DNA of 64,000 bases from Mustelus asterias (taxonomy: Eukaryota): the NCBI RefSeq assembly GCF_964213995.1, contig NC_135808.1, positions 32,364,001 through 32,428,000 on the forward strand, in the 5' to 3' direction. Position numbers and translations under genes: made by a program. Below the pieces are notes generated by a model. The model saw only the letters and a program-made list of their open reading frames with translations, did not search any database and was not told the origin of the DNA. This document shows positions 3,543 to 33,909 of this stretch, piece after piece; positions within the stretch are counted from its first letter, which is position 1, and every line of letters starts with the position of its first letter.

Positions 3543-4230
3543 CTGAAACACATTTGAATAATATGAGGATTGTCACTCTGTTCCCGGATCCATTCCCAGT
3601 TCTCTGTTCATTGGGGACAATTGGAACTGAAGCTGCCCATTGGGTATTGATGGGATTGGCTGAAACGCTGGTTTTACACTCGCCTCCATTTCACTCTCCA
3701 GTGAAATAATGAAAGATTCCCATTGATGGTGGTGTCAAAGCCGTGTTGTCCCAATCCCATGGGATACCTTCCCAGCCAGTTCAGTTCTAATTCTCCCCAA
3801 TGTCTGTGTGTCCTGTCCTTGTTCAATCCCCAGGGTTACATTGTACGGCCCAGGATGCAGCATCACTGATGGTTTTCACATCAAACTTCAAAGGGATGAG
3901 GAATAAACTGATCGCTGGAAACTGGGCTGAGCTGAGAATGAGGAAATCCACAGATAAACAGAGCAAATGCTTCAAAAGAAGCACTTGGTCCAATCCAGCA
4001 GCAGGACTTAGTCCGAAACAACAACACTGAGCCCAGAGTCTAGAGATTGAGGTCCAGACACTTAGACAAGTATCAGCTGATCAAAGAGAGACAGGATGGA
4101 TTGTGAAGGGAATCTCATGTCTGACTAATCTCAGTGAGTGTGATGAGGAGCACAATAACATGGTGGAGAAGGGAGTGTCTATGGACCTGCAGGGAACACG
4201 CACACACAGTACAGTTCAACAGTTCCTTAC

Positions 4231-18169: not shown

Positions 18170-18515
18170 TCTCTTGCCTCCTGTTCTATCTTTCCAATAG
18201 CATCTGTATCCTGGAACATTGAGCTGCCAGTCCTGTCCTTCCCTTAGGCATGTTTCAGTAATTGTAATAATATCCCAGTCCCATGTACCCATCCATGCCC
18301 TGAGTTCATCTGCCTTGCCCGTCAGGCCTCTTGCATTGAAATATATGCAGTTCAATCTGGACTTCCCTTACTCTCTGTCTTGTTTTTGCCTGATCTGTCT
18401 GGTACTTGGATTACTGACACTGCCTTTACTGTTTAATGTGCTCGCTTTAACTTCAACCTTCTCTTCTGTCTCCCTACTGCTTTGGGTCCCACCCCCCGTC
18501 AAACTAGTTTAAACC
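18170..18515 (-). mobile_element. CR1 ORF2 5' end (AP endonuclease start)
   Basis: NCIYFNARGL..DIITITET endonuclease motifs. Continuation of the element split by the + strand CR1. Confidence 0.8.
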
Positions 18516-18519
18516 CTCT

Positions 18520-20810
18520 CGACATGGAGAGCAAGGTGAGGGGGGACGTGGAGAGCGAGGAGTGAGGGGGGGACGTGGAGAGCGAGGAGTGAGGGGGGGA
18601 CGTGGAGAGCGAGGAGTGAGGGGGGCAGAGCGAGGAGAGAGGGGGGCAGAGCGAGGAGAGAGAGAGAGAGAGACATGGAGAGCGAGTGAGCGGGGGAGAC
18701 ATGGAGAGCGAGTGAGCGGGGGAGACATGGAGAGCGAGTGAGCGGGGGAGACATGGAGAGCGAGTGAGCGGGGGAGACATGGAGAGCGAGTGAGCGGGGG
18801 AGACATGGAGAGCGAGTGAGCGGGGGAGACATGGAGAGCGAGTGAGCGGGGGAGACATGGAGAGCGAGTGAGCGGGGGAGACATGGAGAGCGAGTGAGCG
18901 GGGGAGACATGGAGAGCGAGTGAGCGGGGGAGACATGGAGAGCGAGTGAGCGGGGGAGACATGGAGAGCGAGTGAGCGGGGGAGACATGGAGAGCGAGTG
19001 AGCGGGGGAGACATGGAGAGCGAGTGAGCGGGGGAGACATGGAGAGCGAGTGAGCGGGGGAGACATGGAGAGCGAGTGAGCGGGGGAGACATGGAGAGCG
19101 AGTGAGCGGGGGAGACATGGAGAGCGAGTGAGCGGGGGAGACATGGAGAGCGAGTGAGCGGGGGAGACATGGAGAGCGAGTGAGCGGGGGAGACATGGAG
19201 AGCGAGTGAGCGGGGGAGACATGGAGAGCGAGTGAGCGGGGGAGACATGGAGAGCGAGTGAGCGGGGGAGACATGGAGAGCGAGTGAGCGGGGGAGACAT
19301 GGAGAGCGAGTGAGCGGGGGAGACATGGAGAGCGAGTGAGCGGGGGAGACATGGAGAGCGAGTGAGCGGGGGAGACATGGAGAGCGAGTGAGCGGGGGAG
19401 ACATGGAGAGCGAGTGAGCGGGGGAGACATGGAGAGCGAGTGAGCGGGGGAGACATGGAGAGCGAGTGAGCGGGGGAGACATGGAGAGCGAGTGAGCGGG
19501 GGAGACATGGAGAGCGAGTGAGCGGGGGAGACATGGAGAGCGAGTGAGCGGGGGAGACATGGAGAGCGAGTGAGCGGGGGAGACATGGAGAGCGAGTGAG
19601 CGGGGGAGACATGGAGAGCGAGTGAGCGGGGGAGACATGGAGAGCGAGTGAGCGGGGGAGACATGGAGAGCGAGTGAGCGGGGGAGACATGGAGAGCGAG
19701 TGAGCGGGGGAGACATGGAGAGCGAGTGAGCGGGGGAGACATGGAGAGCGAGTGAGCGGGGGAGACATGGAGAGCGAGTGAGCGGGGGAGACATGGAGAG
19801 CGAGTGAGCGGGGGAGACATGGAGAGCGAGTGAGCGGGGGAGACATGGAGAGCGAGTGAGCGGGGGAGACATGGAGAGCGAGTGAGCGGGGGAGACATGG
19901 AGAGCGAGTGAGCGGGGGAGACATGGAGAGCGAGTGAGCGGGGGAGACATGGAGAGCGAGTGAGCGGGGGAGACATGGAGAGCGAGTGAGCGGGGGAGAC
20001 ATGGAGAGCGAGTGAGCGGGGGAGACATGGAGAGCGAGTGAGCGGGGGAGACATGGAGAGCGAGTGAGCGGGGGAGACATGGAGAGCGAGTGAGCGGGGG
20101 AGACATGGAGAGCGAGTGAGCGGGGGAGACATGGAGAGCGAGTGAGCGGGGGAGACATGGAGAGCGAGTGAGCGGGGGAGACATGGAGAGCGAGTGAGCG
20201 GGGGAGACATGGAGAGCGAGTGAGCGGGGGAGACATGGAGAGCGAGTGAGCGGGGGAGACATGGAGAGCGAGTGAGCGGGGGAGACATGGAGAGCGAGTG
20301 AGCGGGGGAGACATGGAGAGCGAGTGAGCGGGGGAGACATGGAGAGCGAGTGAGCGGGGGAGACATGGAGAGCGAGTGAGCGGGGGAGACATGGAGAGCG
20401 AGTGAGCGGGGGAGACATGGAGAGCGAGTGAGCGGGGGATACATGGAGACAGAATGGAAGATATGGAGAGCGAGGAGAGAGGGGGAGGGCAAGGAGAGAG
20501 GGGGAGAATGACATGGAGAGAGAGAAGGGGGAGACATGGANNNNNNNNNNNNNNNNNNNNNNNNNNNNNNNNNNNNNNNNNNNNNNNNNNNNNNNNNNNN
20601 NNNNNNNNNNNNNNNNNNNNNNNNNNNNNNNNNNNNNNNNNNNNNNNNNNNNNNNNNNNNNNNNNNNNNNNNNNNNNNNNNNNNNNNNNNNNNNNNNNAA
20701 GGGGAGACATGGAGAGAGAGAGAGAGAGAGTGGGGGGGAGACATGGAGAGTGAGGGAGAGAGAGAGAGAGAGGCATGGAGAGAGAGAGGGGGAGACATGG
20801 AGGAAGAGGT
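18520..20810 (+). repeat. 26-bp minisatellite (gggggagacatggagagcgagtgagc), highly homogeneous over 18670-20440
   Basis: Near-perfect tandem array related to the 9580-12095 unit; includes an N gap. Confidence 0.97.
20541..20698. other. Assembly gap (N run)
   Basis: Run of n characters. Confidence 1.
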
Positions 20811-20820
20811 GGAGCAATAT

Positions 20821-21510
20821 TGTTATAAAGGGGAGATTGATCCCCTCTCTGAGAACTAACACCTAATCAGAGTACCTTACTTTATAATCTGTTAAAGGTG
20901 TATGAGAAGTCGTGCGTTCTGCTCTTCAGCAACTTTGTGATTAAATCAAAATAACTCCCTGAGACTCTCTCTGTAAAATCATCAAATAAGAATATTTATC
21001 TATCAGTGAACAGGTTAACTAAACTATTAACAAACTGAATGAAACACTATTCTAAATGCTGTTCAGATAAATACAATTCCCACGTATTGACAAAAAAATA
21101 TTTCAACCATGTTTGTCATCTTCCGGAATCTCCTGTCTTCTTTCTTCTGTCTTGTGTCTTCTTGTGCTATCTTTGCTATTCACAGTTTTTGAGCTAAAAG
21201 CTATTCGCTGTGGCAGAGAGCAGTTGCTGTGTCTCTCTGGATCTGAGAGCTGTCTCTTTTACTCCTGATGACAAACCAACATCCCCACAATAGGATATTT
21301 ACTCAGGTTACCAAAACATCAAATTCAAACCTGATAGGTTGCTGTTATTATGATTTAAATTGATTGGGCAAAATTCATAAAACAGCCTGTTGTCTTGGCA
21401 TTGCTACTGCCTGGCTTCTTGATACAAATGTTTCACTCCAGGCTTTCTGTGTACTTGCATTAACACCACCTTTTTAAACAGACAATTTTATAAACACCAA
21501 CTTCCCAACA
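20821..21510. mobile_element. Probable solo LTR
   Basis: Begins TGTTA and ends AACA. Shares short motifs (gatacaaatgtt) with the LTRs at 23371 and 30421. No clear TSD. Confidence 0.45.
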
Positions 21511-23370: not shown

Positions 23371-24092
23371 TGTTACGACGCGGAGGTGATTTTTCTCTCT
23401 GCGCGATTTTAAAAATCATCCAAAAATCATACTTCGCCTCCTATTTTTATACGAATGTGTGTGAGACAGGAGGAAGCTACTGGTTTTGGTAAATTAAAGC
23501 AGGGTCTGACACTCCCTATCAAGAACAATTTTCTTTATTTTAAAACTGGTGACAAACTTATTAAAACATTTAACAAACTGAATAAATTCCCCAATAGAAT
23601 TCTGTTCGAATATTACAAGACTCATTCAGGAATAATGAAACAAATCCTTATAGAATATAGTCACTCTCAAATAATATATCTGGCATCTGTTGAAAGTATG
23701 AACTTTCTTCTGATGTTTCCATCTGGAACAACCTCTGAGTTGGTCTCTATTTCTCTTTAGATGGTGATTTTATGAAGATATATATTAAACTTCAGAATTC
23801 TGGATGAGATCCTTGCCTCTCCCTGCTTCCAACTAAAGGGGTGGCAAGCTTACTTTAACAGTTATCTCCCCTTGTCCAGGTTTAAATACCTAGAATTACC
23901 TCACAGTATTCCTGCAATCTGAATGGCTTGAGGCTGTCAACAATCCTCACATTTGAATTCCATTGGTCCGATGTCTCTGTGCGCTTGCTTTAAACTCATT
24001 GGTTCAATTCAAAAGCCTGTTTTGCTCTACTGGAACACTGGCTGCTGCTTTGGATACAAATGTTGAAAACCAGCTGCTGCAGTTTAAAATAC
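23371..24092 (-). repeat. 3' LTR (partial) of the Gmr1-like element
   Basis: Colinear with 30421-30972 plus 31501-31620; ends at a Penelope fragment. Confidence 0.85.
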
Positions 24093-24094
24093 AG

Positions 24095-24212
24095 TAAGAG
24101 GTCTCACAACACCAGGTTAAAGTCCAACAGGTTTATTTGGTAGCAAACGCCACTCGCTTTCGGAGCGCTGCTCCTTCGTCAGGTGAGTGGGAGTTCTGTT
24201 CACAAACAGCTG
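24095..24212 (-). mobile_element. Penelope terminal fragment with hammerhead-like motif
   Basis: The minus strand reads cacCTGACGAaggagcagcgctccGAAAgcgagtg followed by aaataaacctgttggactttaacctggtgttgtgaga. Confidence 0.75.
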
Positions 24213-24560
24213 TGCACAAACATCCCCAGGGAAAAAATGAACCATCATCAAAAGATGGCTTCATATTTTTCTTGAAAGTTGTTTCTTTATTTTCTCTCAA
24301 CTTTCATCATTTTAAACCAATTCATGAATAACAACAAAAAGATTTACAGAAATACAAAATGCTTCCCTGTTTTTTTTCTCTTTTGTTGGATCTTGCATCC
24401 ACATAGCTTGTGTTTTTAACAGTTTCATTATGATCTCATACAGAACAACCTTTTGCACCAAGTTTTTTGGGAGGATGAACTCTCGCTTCAGTGCGATGAT
24501 CCTGTCATCCTCGTGAGGTTTAGTCACATGGATGTGCTCTGGAGTGATCAGACTTACTTG

Positions 24561-24755
24561 TTCTGGATGGGTTACATGGGCCTTCTTAACACGTAAACCC
24601 ATCAGTCTGATGACTCTTTTATTTTTAGGAGGTTTCCGAGTGAATCCATCTCCGTCACAGCAAACTTTAGTGACCATCCTTGTCCAAACTTTCTTCTTCC
24701 GTTTATCTGTGCGAATAATTTTCAGGATTTCAGTTTCTCCTGGGGCACAAACCTT
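24561..24755 (-). pseudogene. NSA2: NSA2 (60S biogenesis factor) retrocopy fragment
   Basis: Translates to [65 protein letters not shown]. Compare NSA2 as recalled: [65 protein letters not shown]. Confidence 0.9.
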
Positions 24756-25286
24756 TTTGGCCTGCTGATGTTCTGCACGGCGTTTTATGAGTTGTTTTAT
24801 GAGTTGCTTCTGCGAGCTTCAGTCTGATCAGTCAGTAGCTTCTTGTGAGCCTTAGATGCCTTTAGTTTGAGAATGTGCTTCATCAAGATATGCTTTTTCT
24901 TGAAGATATTACCCGTCACCTTCAGATGTAGGCCGTGGCAATTGATCTTCTTAGACTCCCTGTATCTGCAAAGCAGATGCCTTTCAATTCTCATTCTCCT
25001 TATCCAGGCCAGTTTCTCCTGCATGTGAGCATTATCTGTATGCTTTTGCTTACCCATGTTCGTGCCGGCCCTTCCTGCATGTGAGGGTGTTCTTCCTGCA
25101 TCGAGCACACGAGTATACAGTCACAGGCTTGCAGATAATTAGACCATCTTTCATTAATTTTCCGATCTGTTGACAGGAATTGGCATTGACAGTCTCATTT
25201 GTTTCATTAGGATCCAGCCATACCTTCTTCTTGCTACAGCACAAAACGCTGGAGGTCAGTGTCTTCTGAAGCCTGAGCTCACTCAT
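24753..25286 (-). pseudogene. RPL19: RPL19 (eL19) processed pseudogene, nearly full CDS
   Basis: Reads [72 protein letters not shown]. Intronless, with frameshifts near 25060 and 24790. Confidence 0.93.
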
Positions 25287-25844
25287 GGCCGCTTTTCGAT
25301 GGAAAGGTACTTGCCAGTTACCCAGAAATAAGTTCATCTTGAAGAGGTAGGTGGCTTGGCCGACTTCCTGTACACAATCCTCCAACCTTGGGATTGGATA
25401 GAAATCCGATTTTGTCACTGCGTTGTCCTTCTGATATTCCACGCAGAATTGTTGAGTACCATCAGGTTTAGGGACCAACACGACGGGCGAACTCCATTTA
25501 CTTTGACTTGGCTCTATTATGTCATCTTGTAGCAGCGCTTCTACTTCCTCTTGTACCTGCGCTGCTTTGAGAGGATTAAGCCTGTAAGGGTGTTGTTTTA
25601 TGAGAACAGCATTCCCTGCATCAACCTCATGTACTATGGCATCTGCCCTCCCCACTTTATTCCTACATAGGTTCTTATCTCTCTCTTTAACATGTCTTTC
25701 AGTTCAGGTCTCTGTTCTTGGGACAGATAACGTTCTACCTGATTCCAGTTTAAGGACTTCTTCATTGTTCAATATGTTTTGAGGCACAACAAAATCCATA
25801 TCCTCGGGATTTGATTCCTCATTCTGCTTTGATGCACACAAAGT

Positions 25845-26930
25845 CAGCTGCTGCCCTGTGGATCCAGAACTGGCTTGCCCAAAGGAGACAGAGAGTGGGT
25901 TTAGATGGGTCTTTTTCTAAATGGAGGTCAGTCACCAGTGGTGTGCCCCAGGGATCTGTTCTGGGGCCCTTGCTGTTTGTCATTTTCATAAATGACCTGG
26001 ATGAGCAAGTGGAGGGATGGGTTGGTAAGTTTGCCGACGACACGAAGGTTAGTGGGGTTGTGGATAGTCTGGAGGGATGTCAGAAGTTACAAAGGGACAT
26101 AGATAGGATGCAAGACTGGGCGGAGAAGTGGCAGATGGACTTCAACCTAGATAAATGCGTAGTGGTCCATTTTGGCAGGTCAAATGGGATGAAGGAGTAC
26201 AATAGAAAGGGAAAGACTCTTAGTACTGTAGAGGATCAGAAGGACCTTGAGGTCCAGGTCCATAGGACTCTAAAATCGGCCCCGCAGGTGGAGGAGGTGG
26301 TTAAGAAGGCGTCTGGTGTGCTGGCCTTTATCAATCGAGGGATTGAGTTTCGGAGTCTGGGGATAATGATGCAGCTATATCAGACCCTCGTCAGACCCCA
26401 CTTGGAGTACTGTGCTCAGTTCTGGTCGCCTCATTACAGGAAGGATGTGGAAAAGATTGAAAGGGTGCAGAGGCGATTTACAAGGATGTTGCCTGGATTG
26501 AGTGGCATGACTTATGAGGGTAGGCTGAGGGAGCTCGGTCTTTTCTCCTTGGAGACGTAGGATGAGAGGAGACCTAATAGAGGTATATAAGATGTTGAGA
26601 GGCATAGATTGGGTGGACTCTCAGAGGCTTTTTCCCAGGGTGGAAATGGCTGCTACGAGAGGACACAGGTTTAAGGTGCTGGGGGGTAGGTACAGGGGAA
26701 ATGTTCGGGGGAAGTTTTTCACACAGAGGGTGGTGGGCGAGTGGAATCAGCTGCCATCAGTGGTGGTGGAGGCAAACTCAATAGGGTCTTTTAAGAGACT
26801 CCTGGATGAGTACATGGGACTTAATAGGATGGAGGGTTATAGGTAGGCCTAGAAGGTAGGGATATGTTCGGCACAACTTGTGGGGTCGAAGGGCCTGTTT
26901 TGTGCTGTAGTTTTTCTATGTTTCTATGTA
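25845..26930 (+). mobile_element. 5'-truncated CR1 LINE inserted in the LTR element
   Basis: GVPQGSVLGP, KFADDTK and EYCAQFWSP motifs; ttctatgtttctatg tail. Confidence 0.9.
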
Positions 26931-27967
26931 ACTAATACCAGTTTCTCTGGCTCCCTTTCCCCCTCATAATATTGTTTGAGCATGTTCACAAGACATACCC
27001 TGAAAATCTTTTCCCTATCTAGCATTTTCACCAGATAATTTATCTCATTTTAATTTTTTTTCAATTTGGAAGGGACCACTAAATCTCGCTTTAAAAGTAT
27101 CTCCTACAATTGGCAAGACCACCAAAACTATATCTCCAGGGGAAAATATCTGAATGGTAGATTTCTCATCAGCTTCTTGGTTCATTAGGTGCTGTGTCAC
27201 CTTCAAATGCTGCTTAGCTAATTCACCTACCCTATTTAATCTTTCAGAATTAAAAACCTCTGTCTGATCCTTTACCTGCTCAGGTTTCTCTTTTCCCATT
27301 TCATCAAACATAGTGTCAGCTAACTGAACCTCACCTCCTTCACCTTTCCTTTGTGTTTTAACTCATGGCTGTGGGATCTTGTCACCACACAGTCCGACAC
27401 ATTTCCAGGGTATTTTCCTTTTATTTTCTCAGTTCCTAGATTTCCTTTTGGCTTTTCCACTACAATGCGCATCACTCCCACTTGTGATCCACCAAAACCT
27501 TTTCCCAGAATAAAGTGGAATGCTGAAACGGCCAGGTTTACTGTCACTCCCACGATCACTGGATTGGACTTTCTAGTTTTATCTTACACAGGGGAACACT
27601 ACTCTTCTCTCCATTTATTCTACAGATTACCCTTCTTTCGGGCAGTATTTCAGGAGTGCAAATACTTTCATCTCTTACCATTGGAGATATATTAGCTCCA
27701 GTATCTCTGAATAATTTAACTTTGTTACCTACTTCCCCTGTTCTATCTGAATAAACCTTACCCACTCGGGTCAAGCCTTTGAAAAGATCGGGTTCTGCTT
27801 TATCATCCAGCCTGTGCCGAGGCTGTGCACTCTCCTTTATCTCCCTGACTTCTTTCGAGATTACTTTCACTACCTTAACTCGTCCCACTACTTGAGCCTC
27901 TTCTACCACTTCCTTTTTCTCAGGGCCTTTCTTAAGCCACCAGCACTCTGCCTTTGTGTGTCCCATC

Positions 27968-28962
27968 TTAGAGTCAGAGGTTTACAGCATGGAAACAGGC
28001 CCTTCGGCCCAACTTGTCCATGCCACCCTTTTTTTTTTAAACCCCTGAGCTAATCCCATTTGGCCCATATCCCTCTATACCCATCGTACCCATGTAACTA
28101 TCTGAATGCTTTTTAAAAGATAAAATTGTATCCGCCTCTACTACTACCCCTGGCAGCTTGTTCCAGACACTCACCATCCTGTGTGTGAAAAAACTGCCCC
28201 TCTGGACACTTTTGTATCTTTCCCCTCTCACCTTAAACCTATGCCCTCTAGTTTTAGACTCCCCTACCTTTGGGAAAAGATATTGACTATCTACCTTGTC
28301 TATGCCCCTCATTATTTTATAGACATCTATAAGATCACCCCTCAGCCTCCTACGCTCCAGAGAAAAAAGTCCCAGTCTATTCAGCCTCTCCTTATAACTC
28401 AATCCATCAAGTCCCGGTAGCATCCTAGTAAATCTTTTCTGCACTCTTTCTAGTTTAAGAACATCCTTTCTATAATAGGGTGACCAGAATTGCACACAGT
28501 ATTCCAAGTGTGGCCTTACCAATGTCTTGTACAACTTCAACAAGACGTCCCAGCTCCTGTATTCAATGTTCTGACCGATGAAACCAAGCATGCCGAATGC
28601 CTTCTTCACCACTCTGTCCACCTGTGACTTCACTTTCAAGGAGCTATGAACATGTACCCCTAGATCTCTTTGTTCTGTAACTCTCCCCAAGAGAGTTGCC
28701 CTACCATTCACTGAGTAAGTCCTGCCCTGGTTCAATCTACCAAAATGCATCACCACGCATTTGTCCAAATTAAACTCCATCTGCCATTCGTCAGCCCACT
28801 GGCCCAATTGATCAAGATCCCGTTGCAATCGGAGATAACCTTCTTCACTGTCCACTATGCCACCAATCTTGGTGTTATCTGAAAACTTACTAACCATGCC
28901 CCCTATATTCTCATCCAAATCATTAATATAAACGACAAATAACAGTGGGCCCAGCACTGATC
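27968..28962 (-). mobile_element. 5'-truncated CR1 LINE inserted in gag
   Basis: 306-aa RT C-terminal ORF plus 3' tail. Confidence 0.9.
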
Positions 28963-29509
28963 TTATGGCAGTTAAAACACCTGAGGTCTTTCACCTCTTT
29001 TCCACCCTCTGGGGTGTCTTTTTTCACAGGTGGTAAACTGGTCCCAGTGTTATCTACTTTTGGGTGTTCGTGGAAGGATCTCCCCCTCCCCTAACCTCTG
29101 TCCTTCATGGAATAAGATTGCTGTCGGAAGCCAAATTTTAATTTATGCCCTGATGCGTTTTCATGCGCCATCTCTGCAGTTCTTCTCACTAACTGCTCCT
29201 CAACACGAGTTCTTACCCCGTCTGGAAGTGAGTTTTTGAACTCCTCCAGCAGAATTATATTTCTAAGGACCTCATATGGCTTTTCCATGTTTAATGCTCT
29301 CATCCATCTATCCAAATTGTTCTGTTTCACTCTCTCAATTTTGATATAGGTCTGACCTGGTTGCTTTTGTACATTTCTGAACTGTTGTCTATATGCTTCT
29401 GGTACCAATTCGTAGGCACTCAAAACAGCCTTCTTTACTTCTTCATAGTTTCCTGACACCTCCTCTGACAATGCTGCAAACAACTCAGTACCCCTGCCTA
29501 CCAACTTGG

Positions 29510-29710
29510 TCTGAAGTTGTGCGGGTTAGGTTGATTGGCCAGGTTAAAAAAAAAAAATTGTCCCTTAGAGTCCTGGGATGCGTAGGTTAGAGGGATTAGC
29601 GGGTAAAATATGTGGGGGTAGGGCCTGGGTGGGATTGTGGTCGGTGCAGACTCGATGGGCCGAATGGCCTCCTTCTGCACTGTAGGGTTTCTATGTTCTA
29701 TGTTCTATGA
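29510..29710 (+). mobile_element. HE1-type SINE 3' part inserted in gag
   Basis: ggtgcagactcgatgggccgaatggcctccttctgcactgtag followed by a (ttctatg)n tail. Confidence 0.8.
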
Positions 29711-30398
29711 ATTAACTGTACCTACACATCCTCTGGCCACTTCATCTGTGTAGCCAATTTCTTAAAGGAGATGAAAGAGGTTTCTGCGCACTTCTCATCA
29801 AATTTTGGTAATGTCTGTACATAATTGTATATATCCTTAGCAGGCGGTTGGCTCTGCTGAATCTGCTCATTATCACTTCTATCTGGTACTCTTTCTCCTG
29901 CCATTTGAAGTCTGTTTTCTTCCATTTTCAGCTTTTTCCTTTCTAACTGAAACAACCTCTTTTTCCCTTCTTCTCTCTCCCTTTTTCCCTTTCTTCTGCT
30001 AGCGCCTTCATCTCTCTTTCGTTTTCTTCTCTCTCTAACTGGAGGCTGGAGCCTTTTAATTCCATTTTCTAACTCCAATTTTTTCAGTTGCAATCTCATT
30101 TCTCCTAACTCCACCACAGTTGAATGTTTCACTGCTATTCCTAAATGCTTGACTAACTCCTTTACAAGTTCATCTTTCTTACTATCCCTTGGTTAAATCC
30201 AATTCTAATCTGCCAATTTCACAAGTGTCACCTTTCTCTGTTTTTCTAAAGTTTCTTGGCAAATGTGGGACGCTTCTTTGACCCTCAAAACCCCTTTAGC
30301 AATTTCCAGAGCCATTTCCCACTTTTTGATTTAACCGAGATGAAATAGATTTTCCCACTTCTCACTGAAGATTTGTTTAAATATCTGTGACTGTTCAG

Positions 30399-30417
30399 AT
30401 CTTGGTCAAGCCCCCAA
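30399..30417 (-). promoter_or_regulatory. Primer binding site (tRNA-Pro-like)
   Basis: TGGGGGCTTGACCAAGAT lies just 3' of the 5' LTR; compare the tRNA-Pro PBS TGGGGGCTCGTCCGGGAT. Confidence 0.7.
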
Positions 30418-30420
30418 TTT

Positions 30421-31750
30421 TGTTACGATACTGAGGTGATTTTTCCCTCTCTGCGATTTTGGAACCACCCAAAGGGACATACCTTGCCTCAATCTTATGT
30501 GGTGAGATAGTAGGAAGCTACTGGTTTTGGTCAATTAAAGCAGGATCTGACACTCTCACACTCATGAACAATTAACAGGTCTTTATTTTAAAACTGGTGA
30601 CAAACTTATTAGAACATTTAACAAACTAAATAAATTCCCCAATAGAATGCTGTTCGAATATTACAAGACTCATTCAGGAATAATGAAATAAATCCTTGTA
30701 GAATATAGTCACTCTCAAGTAATATATTACCTGGCGTCTGGTGGAAGTATGAACTTTCTTCTGATGCTTCCATCTGGAACAACCTCTGAGTTAATATCCC
30801 TTTCTCTTTGGATGGTGATTTTCTGAAGACATTTATATTAAACTGAAGGATTCTATATGAGAGCTTTGCCTCTCCCTCCTTCCAACTAAAGGGGTAGCAA
30901 GCTTACTCTAACAGCTATATCCCCTTGTCTAGATTTAAATACCTGGAATTACCTCTCAGTATTCCAGAAATCCTGAATACTGTGTACAGTTCTGGTCACA
31001 TTATAGAAAGGATATTATTAAGCTGGAAAGAGTGCAGAAAAGATTTACTAGGATGCTACCGGGGCTTGATGGTTTGAGTTATAAGGAGAGGCTGGGGCTC
31101 TTTTCCCTGGAGCGTAGGAGGCTGAGGGGTGACCTTATAGAGGTCTATAAACTAGTGAGGGGCACAGATCAGCTAAATAATCAACATCTTTTCCCAAAGG
31201 TAGGGGAGTCTAAAACTAGAGGGCATAGGTTTAAGCTGAGGGGACAGATACAAAAGGTTCCAGAGGGTCAATTTTTTCAGAGGGTCATGATGTCTGGAAC
31301 AAGCTGCCAGAGGTAGTAGTAGAGGCGGGTACAATTTTGTCTTTTGAAAAGCATTTAGACAGTTATATGGATTAGATGGGTATAGAGGGATATGGGCCCA
31401 ATGCGGGCAATTGGGACCCGCTTAGTGGTTTAAAAAAAGGGCGGCATGGACAAGTTGGGCCGAAGGGCCTGTTTTTATGCTGCAAACCTCTATGACTCTA
31501 ATCTGAATGGCTTTAGGCTATCATCAAACCTCATATTTGTATTCCATTGATCCTGGGTCTCTGCGTGCTGGCTTTGATTTGGACACAAATGTTGCAAACC
31601 TGCTGCTGCAGTTTAAAATCCACAGAAAGACACTTGCTTTTTAAGGAGACAATGCTGTATGATTTCTTATTTGGGTTTTAGCATTTCTTTTCAATATTTA
31701 CATTTTGTCAAACATCACATTTTTAACCTTACATTTTCAAGTTCACAACA
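30421..31750 (-). repeat. 5' LTR of the Gmr1-like element (interrupted by a CR1 3' fragment at ~30973-31500)
   Basis: Homologous to 23371-24092, with TG...CA ends. Confidence 0.85.
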
Positions 31751-32155: not shown

Positions 32156-32664
32156 TATCTACAACTGAGCCAATTTTGAATCCACCTTATCAAATTACCC
32201 TATATCCCATGTACATTTGCCTTCTTTATAAGTTTCCCATGTAGGACCTTGTCAAAGGCTTTGCTGAAATCCATATAAACTATATCAACTGCACTATCCT
32301 CACCTACACATCGAGTCACCTCGTCAAAAAATTCAATCAAATTTGTTCGACATGGCCTCCCTCTGATGAAGCCAGCTCCGATCAAGCTATCCTCTCCATT
32401 TCCCCCCACTGCTCTTCTGTAGATTTTCCCATTAGTAGCTGTTCCCAGTCTATCTCGACCAGATCCTATCTTATTTTACTAAAATTCCCTCTCCCCCAAA
32501 CCAAAACTTTGTTTTGGCAACCTGTCTATTTCTTTGTCCATAACAACCTTAAACAATACCATAAGATAAAAGCAAAATACTGCAGATGCTGGAATCTAAA
32601 ACTGAAACAGAAAATCCTGGAAAATCTCAGCAGGTCTGACAGCAGATCTGTGGAGAGAGAATAG

Positions 32665-32703
32665 AGCCAACGTTTCAAGTCTGGATGACCCTTCGTCAGA
32701 GCT
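32665..32703 (-). ncRNA. Minimal type-I hammerhead ribozyme motif
   Basis: Exact reverse complement of 32832-32870. Confidence 0.65.
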
Positions 32704-32831
32704 CGAACCAGTTCAGCCAGATGGAGGAGAGTGGTGGTGGATGGGGACTGTTCAGACTTCTTTTCGAGGAAGAAGCGAAGAGCTTTGAGGCCATCCTGAT
32801 TGGGAATGGAGGTGTAGAGGGAACTCTACTC

Positions 32832-32870
32832 AGCTCTGACGAAGGGTCATCCAGACTTGAAACGTTGGCT
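32832..32870 (+). ncRNA. Minimal type-I hammerhead ribozyme motif
   Basis: AGCT-CTGACGA-A-GGGTC atcca GACTT-GAAA-CG-TT-GGCT: core boxes, stems I and II, and a palindromic AACGTT stem III. Confidence 0.7.
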
Positions 32871-33909
32871 CTATTCTCTCTCCACAGATGCTGTCTGACC
32901 TGCTGAGATTTTCCAGCATTTTCTATCTTTGTGTTGAATGGTACCATGTTGTGGTCGCTATCAGTGAAATGCTCCCCCACCATCACCTCAACCATCCAAC
33001 TGTCTTAATTCCCCAGAATCAGGTCCAGCACAGCTCCGTCCCTTGCTGGACCCTCTACATATTGACCTAAACAGTTCTCCTCTACACATTTCAAGAAATC
33101 TACTCCATTCAAGGCCTGAACACTATGTCTATCCCAATCACTGTTGAGAAAGTTGAAATCACCTTCTCCAATTACCCTATTGTTATTGTATTTAAACAAC
33201 TTTATGAATTGTGCACATATTTGCTCCTCAATATCCCTCTGACTATCTGGGTGTCGATAATAAATACCTAACAATGTGGCTGCGAATCTTTTATTCCTAA
33301 ACTCTACCACAAAGCTTCATTTGATGCCAAGATATAATCTCTCCTTAGCACAGTAACTGACTCCTTTACTAATAATGCAATGTCTCCTCCTCTTTTACCC
33401 CCTTCCCTGTCTCACGCAAAGATATTATTTCCCAGAATGTTGAGCTGCCAATTCTGCCCCTCCCTCAACCACGTCTCTGTCATGGCTGTTATCTCATAAT
33501 TACACATGTCAATCTTCGCCCTTAACCCATCTGCTTTTCCTGAAATACTGCTGGCATTAAAGTAGTGGCCAACCAACATTGCCTTACTCCCTTGAAACTT
33601 ACTACACTTGCACTCTCTCTGATTTGATTGTTTGCTGTATTATGCTGTGTCCCTATTCTCCCAACAGTCTGTGTCCCCTGCTCCTCCTGAATTAGTTTAA
33701 ACTCCTCCCAACAGCACTAGCAAACCCACCAGCAAGGACATTTGTCCCATTCTGGTTCAGTTGTGGACCGTCTACCGTGTACAGGCCCCACCTTCCCCAG
33801 AAATGGGGTGCTAGAGGGATTTGAAGAGGATTCTGGGGACTCAGGTGCTGAGTGGGTCGAAGTGGCCTGTCCAGGTGGGACCTGCTGCCAGGATGTGACA
33901 GATGGACAC

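Follow-up and report, generated by a model that had tools for sequence, protein, structure and literature searches.

The window analysed here (G000:C8:32364001-32428000, 64,000 nucleotides of Mustelus asterias DNA) contains a stretch in which the reading frame of a reverse transcriptase (RT) passes directly into the coding sequence of a ribosomal protein. How did host sequence come to lie inside a retrotransposon, and did the composite ever move? The first-pass annotation of the window had proposed serial template switching by a Gmr1-like element, possibly giving rise to a transducing non-autonomous family. This proposal held up when the same joins turned up at many loci whose flanks and target duplications differ.

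Host mRNA pieces in place of half of pol

The composite lies on the minus strand, between a TG at 31750 and a CA at 23371, and sits within a LINE fragment. GGGG flanks both ends. As first annotated, it is a paired-LTR element whose RT, ending at WQVP, is joined in frame to RPL19. The two LTRs are about 85% identical by BLAST (K2P 0.12 on ungapped columns), and several LINE and SINE-like pieces were later inserted into the element. Its features are as follows (all minus strand).

30421..31750, minus: 5′ LTR (type A), outer flank GGGG; split by a LINE at 30975-31501
30403..30420, minus: primer-binding-site-like stretch TTGGGGGC..., directly after the 5′ LTR
28958..30192, minus: decayed gag with SCAN domain (PF02023, E=1.2e-8) and the first part of a zinc knuckle; a SINE-like piece lies within it at 29514-29702
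27237..27967, minus: remainder of the zinc knuckle, then protease region and linker; preceded by a LINE insert at 27968-28962
26930..27236, minus: C-terminal remnant of integrase; the core is gone through an in-frame deletion of ~940-960 nt
25303..25826, minus: N-terminal part of RT, ending WQVP, after a LINE insert at ~25840-26929
25303..25306, minus: join J1, RT to RPL19 5′ end; CTTT common to both parents
24756..25306, minus: spliced RPL19 without its five introns, 5′ UTR plus codons 1 to ~181 of 196; frameshifted by now
24752..24761, minus: join J2, RPL19 to NSA2; 18 nt shorter in the window copy, GGAAG in other copies common to both parents
24562..24761, minus: spliced NSA2 coding piece, two exons; ~residues 119-188 in fuller copies
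24393..24563, minus: DRC7 piece with MORN domain, from two exons; GA shared at join J3 (24563-24562)
24272..24399, minus: NSA2 3′ UTR to its likely poly(A) site; AATAAA at 24291-24286; join J4, GATGCAA, at 24399-24393
24223..24273, minus: the element's A-rich tract (join J5), 3′ UTR and polypurine tract
23371..24222, minus: 3′ LTR terminating in CA, outer flank GGGG; a SINE-like piece is inserted at 24080-24209

Read 5′ to 3′ along the element, the order is thus RT, RPL19, NSA2 coding sequence, DRC7, NSA2 3′ UTR, A-rich tract, polypurine tract and LTR. The stretch behind the 5′ LTR may resemble a tRNA-Pro primer site. The SCAN-type capsid domain of gag matches PF02023 at 29094-29525. The LINE fragment at 27968-28962 lies within the zinc knuckle and shows an apparent 6-nt duplication, as read by eye. 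Alignment with full-pol relatives confirmed the initial view that the 3′ half of pol was replaced, not interrupted: cargo-bearing copies follow the internal region of a full-pol element (4,805 nt) up to position 3827 and match it again from the 3′ tract onwards, so that ~940 nt of pol are missing exactly where the cargo stands.

Outside the element, the window also contains a long, near-perfect tandem array of a 26-nt unit (18500-20860) and a near-perfect, MITE-like inverted repeat (32598-32935; 58 nt at 100%, arms 128 nt apart).

In the full-pol relative L092, the Pfam matches to RVT_1 and RNase H follow those to integrase (two weak ones, short of the curated cut-off), and the remnants in the window have the same order. 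Passages in PMC8220671 and PMC3424704 describe an integrase upstream of RT as a trait of Gmr1-like Ty3/Gypsy elements, with which the element shares this order and the SCAN-type gag. The cargo-bearing forms differ from the elements described there by lacking the integrase core and the RT/RNase H 3′ half. Judged from domain order and gag type, with an RT tree made up of this genome's copies alone, the element is probably Gmr1-like. All full-pol relatives whose frames were inspected are decayed, and no intact helper with a type A LTR was identified.

Three host genes supplied spliced mRNA

A genome search with the cargo returned exon-sized matches on C11, C6 and C18, which proved to be the parent genes of RPL19, NSA2 and DRC7. 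The parent RPL19 gene has six exons and a spliced coding sequence of 196 codons; its five introns are absent from the element. The RPL19 piece of the window begins with an ATG at 25286 and matches the Pfam domains L19e and L19e_C. The near-complete intronless coding sequence described at first pass was therefore found as such, short of the last ~14 codons. The adjoining NSA2 piece is 87-92% identical to two parent exons, one of which corresponds to residues 116-173 of the solved NSA2 structure (PDB match). While the junction of RPL19 with an internal NSA2 segment was thus correctly recognised, two further pieces had escaped notice. A weak Pfam match to MORN_DRC7 downstream of the NSA2-like segment gave the first sign of a third cargo, traced to two exons of the DRC7 parent gene (PF24667, E=9.5e-21 and 9e-7). 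In the window, an internal deletion takes out the DRC7 exon join that other copies retain. The second missed piece is NSA2's own 3′ UTR (24399-24272). Since NSA2 coding sequence precedes DRC7 and the NSA2 3′ UTR follows it, DRC7 stands where the middle part of the captured NSA2 mRNA would be. The suggestion that the cargos share a link to the 60S ribosome had to be abandoned, because DRC7 is, by its Pfam name, a ciliary dynein-regulatory gene.

Seven introns are missing within the captured pieces (five from RPL19, one from NSA2, one from DRC7). All pieces are in sense orientation relative to the element and none has its own poly(A) tail. The block ends 14 nt past the NSA2 AATAAA, on the A-rich tract of the element, and in agreement with the first-pass annotation neither a poly(A) tail nor a target duplication brackets it. 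The genome also contains two ordinary RPL19 processed pseudogenes with A tails (L024 at C7:109.11 Mb and L026 at C18:88.01 Mb), which were used as controls.

Joins between cargo and element

Alignment with the actual parents showed exact overlaps at the joins J1 to J4: CTTT (4 nt), GGAAG (5 nt), GA (2 nt) and GATGCAA (7 nt). The joint chance of these overlaps under a simple random-join model is 4e-9 to 3e-8, with J3, between NSA2 and DRC7, contributing just two exact shared letters. J1 had been placed at a pyrimidine tract about 15 nt before the RPL19 ATG. Exon 1 of the parent gene indeed has a TCTTTCC tract 14 nt upstream of the ATG, with identical spacing in the element, and J1 falls within it; presumably the tract is the RPL19 cap site, as in 5′TOP mRNAs. 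The account of J2 needed correction. The QAKK/KV junction at AAAGG is that of the window copy, most copies reading AKK-EVPLPK with GGAAG common to RPL19 and NSA2; the AAAGG overlap is secondary, because J2 of the window carries an 18-nt in-frame deletion relative to those copies.

In full-pol relatives the A-rich tract of J5 lies directly behind the pol stop codon, where we infer that it would pair with poly(A) during minus-strand copying. The corresponding poly(A) sites are putative, that of RPL19 being placed from the two processed pseudogenes and that of NSA2 from the position of AATAAA alone.

A further similarity concerns J1 and J2 together. An 11-nt word, AAGTACCTTTG, is common to the NSA2 exon and to RT and lies exactly at these joins. 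It is among the two longest words shared by NSA2 and the element in three of five full-pol relatives and is present in 10 of 14 uncaptured relatives. In fuller copies RPL19 is flanked by 10-nt direct repeats, which are native parts of RT and of the NSA2 mRNA. The RT site at the WQVP codons of L074 can form an 8-bp hairpin in a 40-nt stretch (-11.8 kcal/mol, computed without a shuffle control), and NSA2 has two matches of 11-12 nt to this site.

A dispersed and mobile family

The genome search with the cargo yielded 45 matches. A pattern for J1 matched at 20 places, one of them apparently by chance, and the reversed control at 2. When six segmental duplicates on C16 are counted as one locus and a C69/C73 twin as another, the family occupies no fewer than 21 independent loci, spread over 14 contigs; as scoring was confined to the best candidates, this figure is a minimum. 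They comprise 14 loci of a three-gene lineage, 6 loci with RPL19 only and 1 recombinant with full pol. Nine of the three-gene loci have all four joins; the five partial ones were placed by tree, LTR or remaining joins. The RPL19-only loci have RPL19's own C-terminus (a C18 copy, cut short, was placed by tree) and, in the four copies with intact 3′ ends, the RPL19 3′ UTR runs to the same 3′ tract.

Both ends could be found at eight loci. Six of these have exact target duplications (GGGG, TACT, GTAC, GTAT, GACT and TACCT) and two have imperfect ones (GCAG/ACAG and CACC/CTTC). Cargo copies differ from one another by 10-25%, have different flanks and are hosted by at least three LTR types that align poorly with each other. 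Thus, the genome-wide search for the joins that had been suggested at the outset found them repeated in different surroundings. The family is real and mobile, with a three-gene transducing form and a surviving one-gene stage.

Several loci have peculiarities of their own. Six truncated copies at C16:88.57-89.28 Mb (L007-L012, L030) lie within a large segmental duplication, one pair being 98.9% identical over 16.5 kb; the sequence behind DRC7 in these copies was considered as a fourth cargo and set aside as a truncation, no LTR following it. The recombinant at C1:197.93 Mb (L122, L152, L167) reads RT, the first ~95 nt of RPL19, a SINE-like insert, RT again and the full 3′ half of pol; ~20 nt of RT are repeated, and GCAG/ACAG are its flanks. 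A copy at C16:94.74 Mb (L109) has an internal deletion running from the RPL19 5′ UTR to the start of the second DRC7 exon. Finally, positions 24232-25300 of the window are unusually similar to a copy 2 Mb away at C8:34.41 Mb (L002, L038): RPL19 is 92% identical, as compared to 82% for three other pairs, and DRC7 96% as compared to 88-90%, while gag and LTR are not unusually alike. This suggests gene conversion or a recombinant RNA.

Independent sequence data were consistent with the assembly. A 1,383-nt contig from a public run, possibly from the source sample itself, spans 24180-25562 with 3 differences, and contigs under four other organism labels cross one join or several, with as few as 2-7 differences from the window copy over 150-270 nt in some of them. 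The joins are therefore spanned by independent contigs under this and four other labels, as had been asked of them. By this comparison the family is older than the split of these organisms, and so, probably, is the window insertion. In one run (X4, organism B) a contig joins 24270 to 24944, skipping 673 letters of cargo, and may represent the RPL19-only form.

The possibility of an assembly artefact or of mere segmental duplication, to which the C16 duplicates give some colour, can be given negligible weight in view of these contigs, of the 10-25% divergence and of the different flanks.

Origin of the composite

Serial template switching is supported by the recurrence of the same joins at many loci with different flanks, by the loss of introns and by the overlap of each join with both parents, the latter two emerging from the alignment to the parental genes that the first-pass annotation had called for. 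We put at about 0.88 the probability of the following reading: the window holds a dead copy of a non-autonomous Gmr1-like LTR retrotransposon family in which spliced RPL19, NSA2 and DRC7 mRNA pieces stand in for the RT/RNase H half, the pieces having likely been acquired through template switches during reverse transcription and the family having likely been spread by intact relatives acting in trans. In a first step, RT would have jumped from the A-rich tract behind the pol stop codon onto the poly(A) end of an RPL19 mRNA packaged alongside, followed that mRNA as far as its 5′ end and switched back to the element at CTTT, generating the RPL19-only form. In a second step, within an element already carrying RPL19, the same A-rich tract would have been joined to the 3′ end of an NSA2 mRNA; an excursion into DRC7, leaving NSA2 at GATGCAA and coming back at GA, and a crossing from NSA2 into RPL19 at GGAAG would then have produced the three-gene form. 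Both forms keep LTRs, primer site and polypurine tract, and would have continued to transpose and to recombine with full-pol relatives.

LINEs and SINEs are abundant in this genome and nested in these very elements, and the two RPL19 processed pseudogenes show that LINE-type retrocopies of this gene exist. One might therefore imagine that LINE-made retrocopies were inserted successively into a resident LTR element and that the composite was then copied; the 10-nt direct repeats around RPL19 in fuller copies even look like a target duplication. Yet both repeats are native to RT and to the NSA2 mRNA, and the ~940 nt of pol are lost exactly at the cargo site. Moreover, all pieces are in sense orientation and tailless, and DRC7 takes the place of NSA2 sequence at an overlap of 7 nt. 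A processed pseudogene would have its own tail and duplication, with no loss of target sequence, a combination the cargo does not present. We therefore regard this origin as very improbable. What the cargo does present is spliced mRNA, replacement of an ORF between two LTRs and microsimilarity at the joins, the hallmarks of template-switch retrocopies.

Order of captures

A 6-nt deletion in RPL19 is found in 13 of the 14 element loci that span the site and is absent from the two processed pseudogenes; the window has a rearrangement of its own there. In a tree rooted on the host gene (from which C2b, the 67-nt piece of the recombinant and other rows under 250 nt were left out, as was C73 from the RT tree), RPL19 copies of the element form one clade (bootstrap 90) and those of the three-gene lineage another within it (98). 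The shared deletion and the single clade indicate that the RPL19 cargo has a single origin.

RPL19 was probably captured first. RPL19-only copies cover more LTR types than three-gene copies and include the most diverged LTR pair: K2P is 0.29 and 0.08 in two RPL19-only copies and 0.05-0.13 in five three-gene copies. The age argument comes from one old copy, the other RPL19-only pair standing at 0.08. This order leaves unexplained the 11-nt word at J1 and J2, which fits either a switching hot spot or an opposite order. In the latter, NSA2 (with DRC7) would have been captured first through the 11-nt match to RT at WQVP, RPL19 would have entered by an out-and-back excursion duplicating ~10 nt, and the RPL19-only form would have arisen later, by re-copying the RPL19 3′ end from mRNA. 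The exact position of the word and its presence in 10 of the 14 uncaptured relatives speak for such a course, as does the recombinant at C1:197.93 Mb, which switches within ~10 nt of the same word. On the other hand, it requires two extra switches, it does not account for the wider range of LTR types and the oldest LTR pair on the RPL19-only side, and no RT-NSA2 join without RPL19 was found in the genome (the six pattern matches were the parent and five ordinary RT copies). We consider the NSA2-first order rather unlikely.

The search for intermediates returned no element with NSA2 only or with NSA2 lacking DRC7 among all candidates in the genome (9/9 and 21/21; six pattern matches), and no retrocopy of the last-exon coding part of NSA2 among 9/9 candidates. 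As no NSA2 intermediate was found, the second step of the RPL19-first course cannot be split or ordered. No other cargo was seen at the A-rich tract among 30 of 167 matches scored against the known feature set; these 30 were 6 three-gene copies, 1 recombinant, and 23 pol ends, other 3′ tracts or fragments. Similarly, no further RPL19-only copies were present among the best 40 of 690 candidates. This search brought up 17 new loci with type-B LTRs and unrelated flanks, one of which is the 5′ LTR of C23b.

Protein constraint and reading frame

Private substitutions in the three cargos have nonsynonymous to synonymous ratios (N/S) of 3.4, 3.5 and 2.4, against an expectation of 2.4-3.7, so that the comparison of substitutions across copies gave a neutral-like result. 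Changes diagnostic for RPL19 lineages are mostly amino-acid changing (~16 to 7 by our own count; neutral 2.4-3.4), which argues against conservation of the cargo protein. Shared RPL19 cargo substitutions have N/S of 0.8-1.4 against 3.4 for private ones; this synonymous excess was rejected as evidence of selection, the class including changes of the host lineage. No copy examined is undamaged, each being truncated or having indels or stops in one or more cargo pieces, and an 11-nt frameshift is common to two loci. In the three-gene lineage, gag has 1 nonsynonymous to 3 synonymous changes, too few to be informative, the protease is neutral-like, and the RT remnant has a purifying pattern, which probably stems from the autonomous period of the element.

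The joins had been described as in frame and the window copy as frameshifted by now. Both statements proved correct: J1, J2 and J3 all keep the frame, and RPL19 of the window is frameshifted. Three separate deletions of the integrase core (the third read by eye) are in frame as well, making six of six joins and deletions that were propagated. Given the shared word, the chance of being in frame is 0.36-0.53 per join, with 1/3 taken for the UTR join, and the post hoc product is ~0.005. Behind DRC7, the NSA2 3′ UTR stays open for 30 codons in the DRC7 frame, the other two frames closing earlier, and no stop codon occurs among substitutions shared by at least four copies. From the sequence, gag and pol appear to form one single frame.

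These observations could be taken to mean that the cargo encodes a selected fusion protein that helps the element or the host. The near-neutral diagnostic changes in RPL19, the lesions in every copy examined and the 11-nt frameshift at two loci make this hardly credible. The cargo is a passenger with no selected protein. We tentatively consider that uptake may instead be filtered by reading frame, not by protein, with the A-rich tract and the hairpin at the WQVP codons as reusable landing sites. Only chimeras open in one frame from gag to near the 3′ LTR would then spread, probably because nonsense-mediated decay spares their RNA or because translation is required for packaging. The shared 11-nt frameshift and the gag and protease figures lend no added support to such a filter.

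Discussion

The mechanism is already published; the RPL19/NSA2/DRC7 family is a well-preserved new example of it, with no new gene or mechanism shown. As described by Tan et al. 2016 (PMC5131818), in LTR-mediated retrocopies an mRNA replaces part of the element ORF with median overlaps of 6 bp; animal chimeras join two genes in fly and four in mouse ('Super'), and BLASTOPIA returned repeatedly at one A-rich site and gave secondary copies from one capture. ORF replacement, short overlaps, multi-gene chimeras, an A-rich return site and secondary copies are all shared with the present family. The captures described there are young and occupy a single site or a few, whereas here there are at least 21 old loci and two amplified stages, together with DRC7 nested in NSA2, complete mRNA ends, several LTR types and cross-species labels. 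The terms 'Gmr1' and 'Rpl19' were not found in nine supplementary files of that study.

Maize Bs1, as described in PMC5131818 and PMC13317346, is a non-autonomous LTR element that has taken up parts of three host genes; it has 1-5 copies with shared switch points and is reported to be transcribed and translated. The family described here likewise has three host cargos, is non-autonomous and has common switch points, with the same joins at dispersed sites that have their own target duplications (6 of 8 exact). Unlike the plant element, it is a vertebrate, Gmr1-like one with a surviving one-gene stage and without signs of chimeric-protein constraint, substitutions being neutral-like and frames broken. 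Crocodilian ERVs with KIT-ligand or nectin3 mRNA, amplified to nine and six copies according to Chong et al. 2014 (PMC4299795), provide another instance of host mRNA captured and then amplified in a non-mammalian vertebrate. Those are retroviruses with one cargo each and reported purifying selection, whereas the present element is Ty3/Gypsy with three neutral cargos. No published account of an RPL19/NSA2/DRC7 element was found in a search of openly available papers.

Animal LTR-driven captures in print are mostly single or in few copies, and the path to a multi-gene chimera has been guessed. In the present family the one-gene stage, the three-gene stage and a recombinant back to full pol have all been preserved, at numerous sites and across species. 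Genome comparison could therefore test in which order the captures took place, whether landing sites were reused and whether frame-keeping is selected. If the frame filter is true, the family would be a standing vehicle for in-frame exon shuffling, to which host genes were added stepwise over a long period in a vertebrate germ line.
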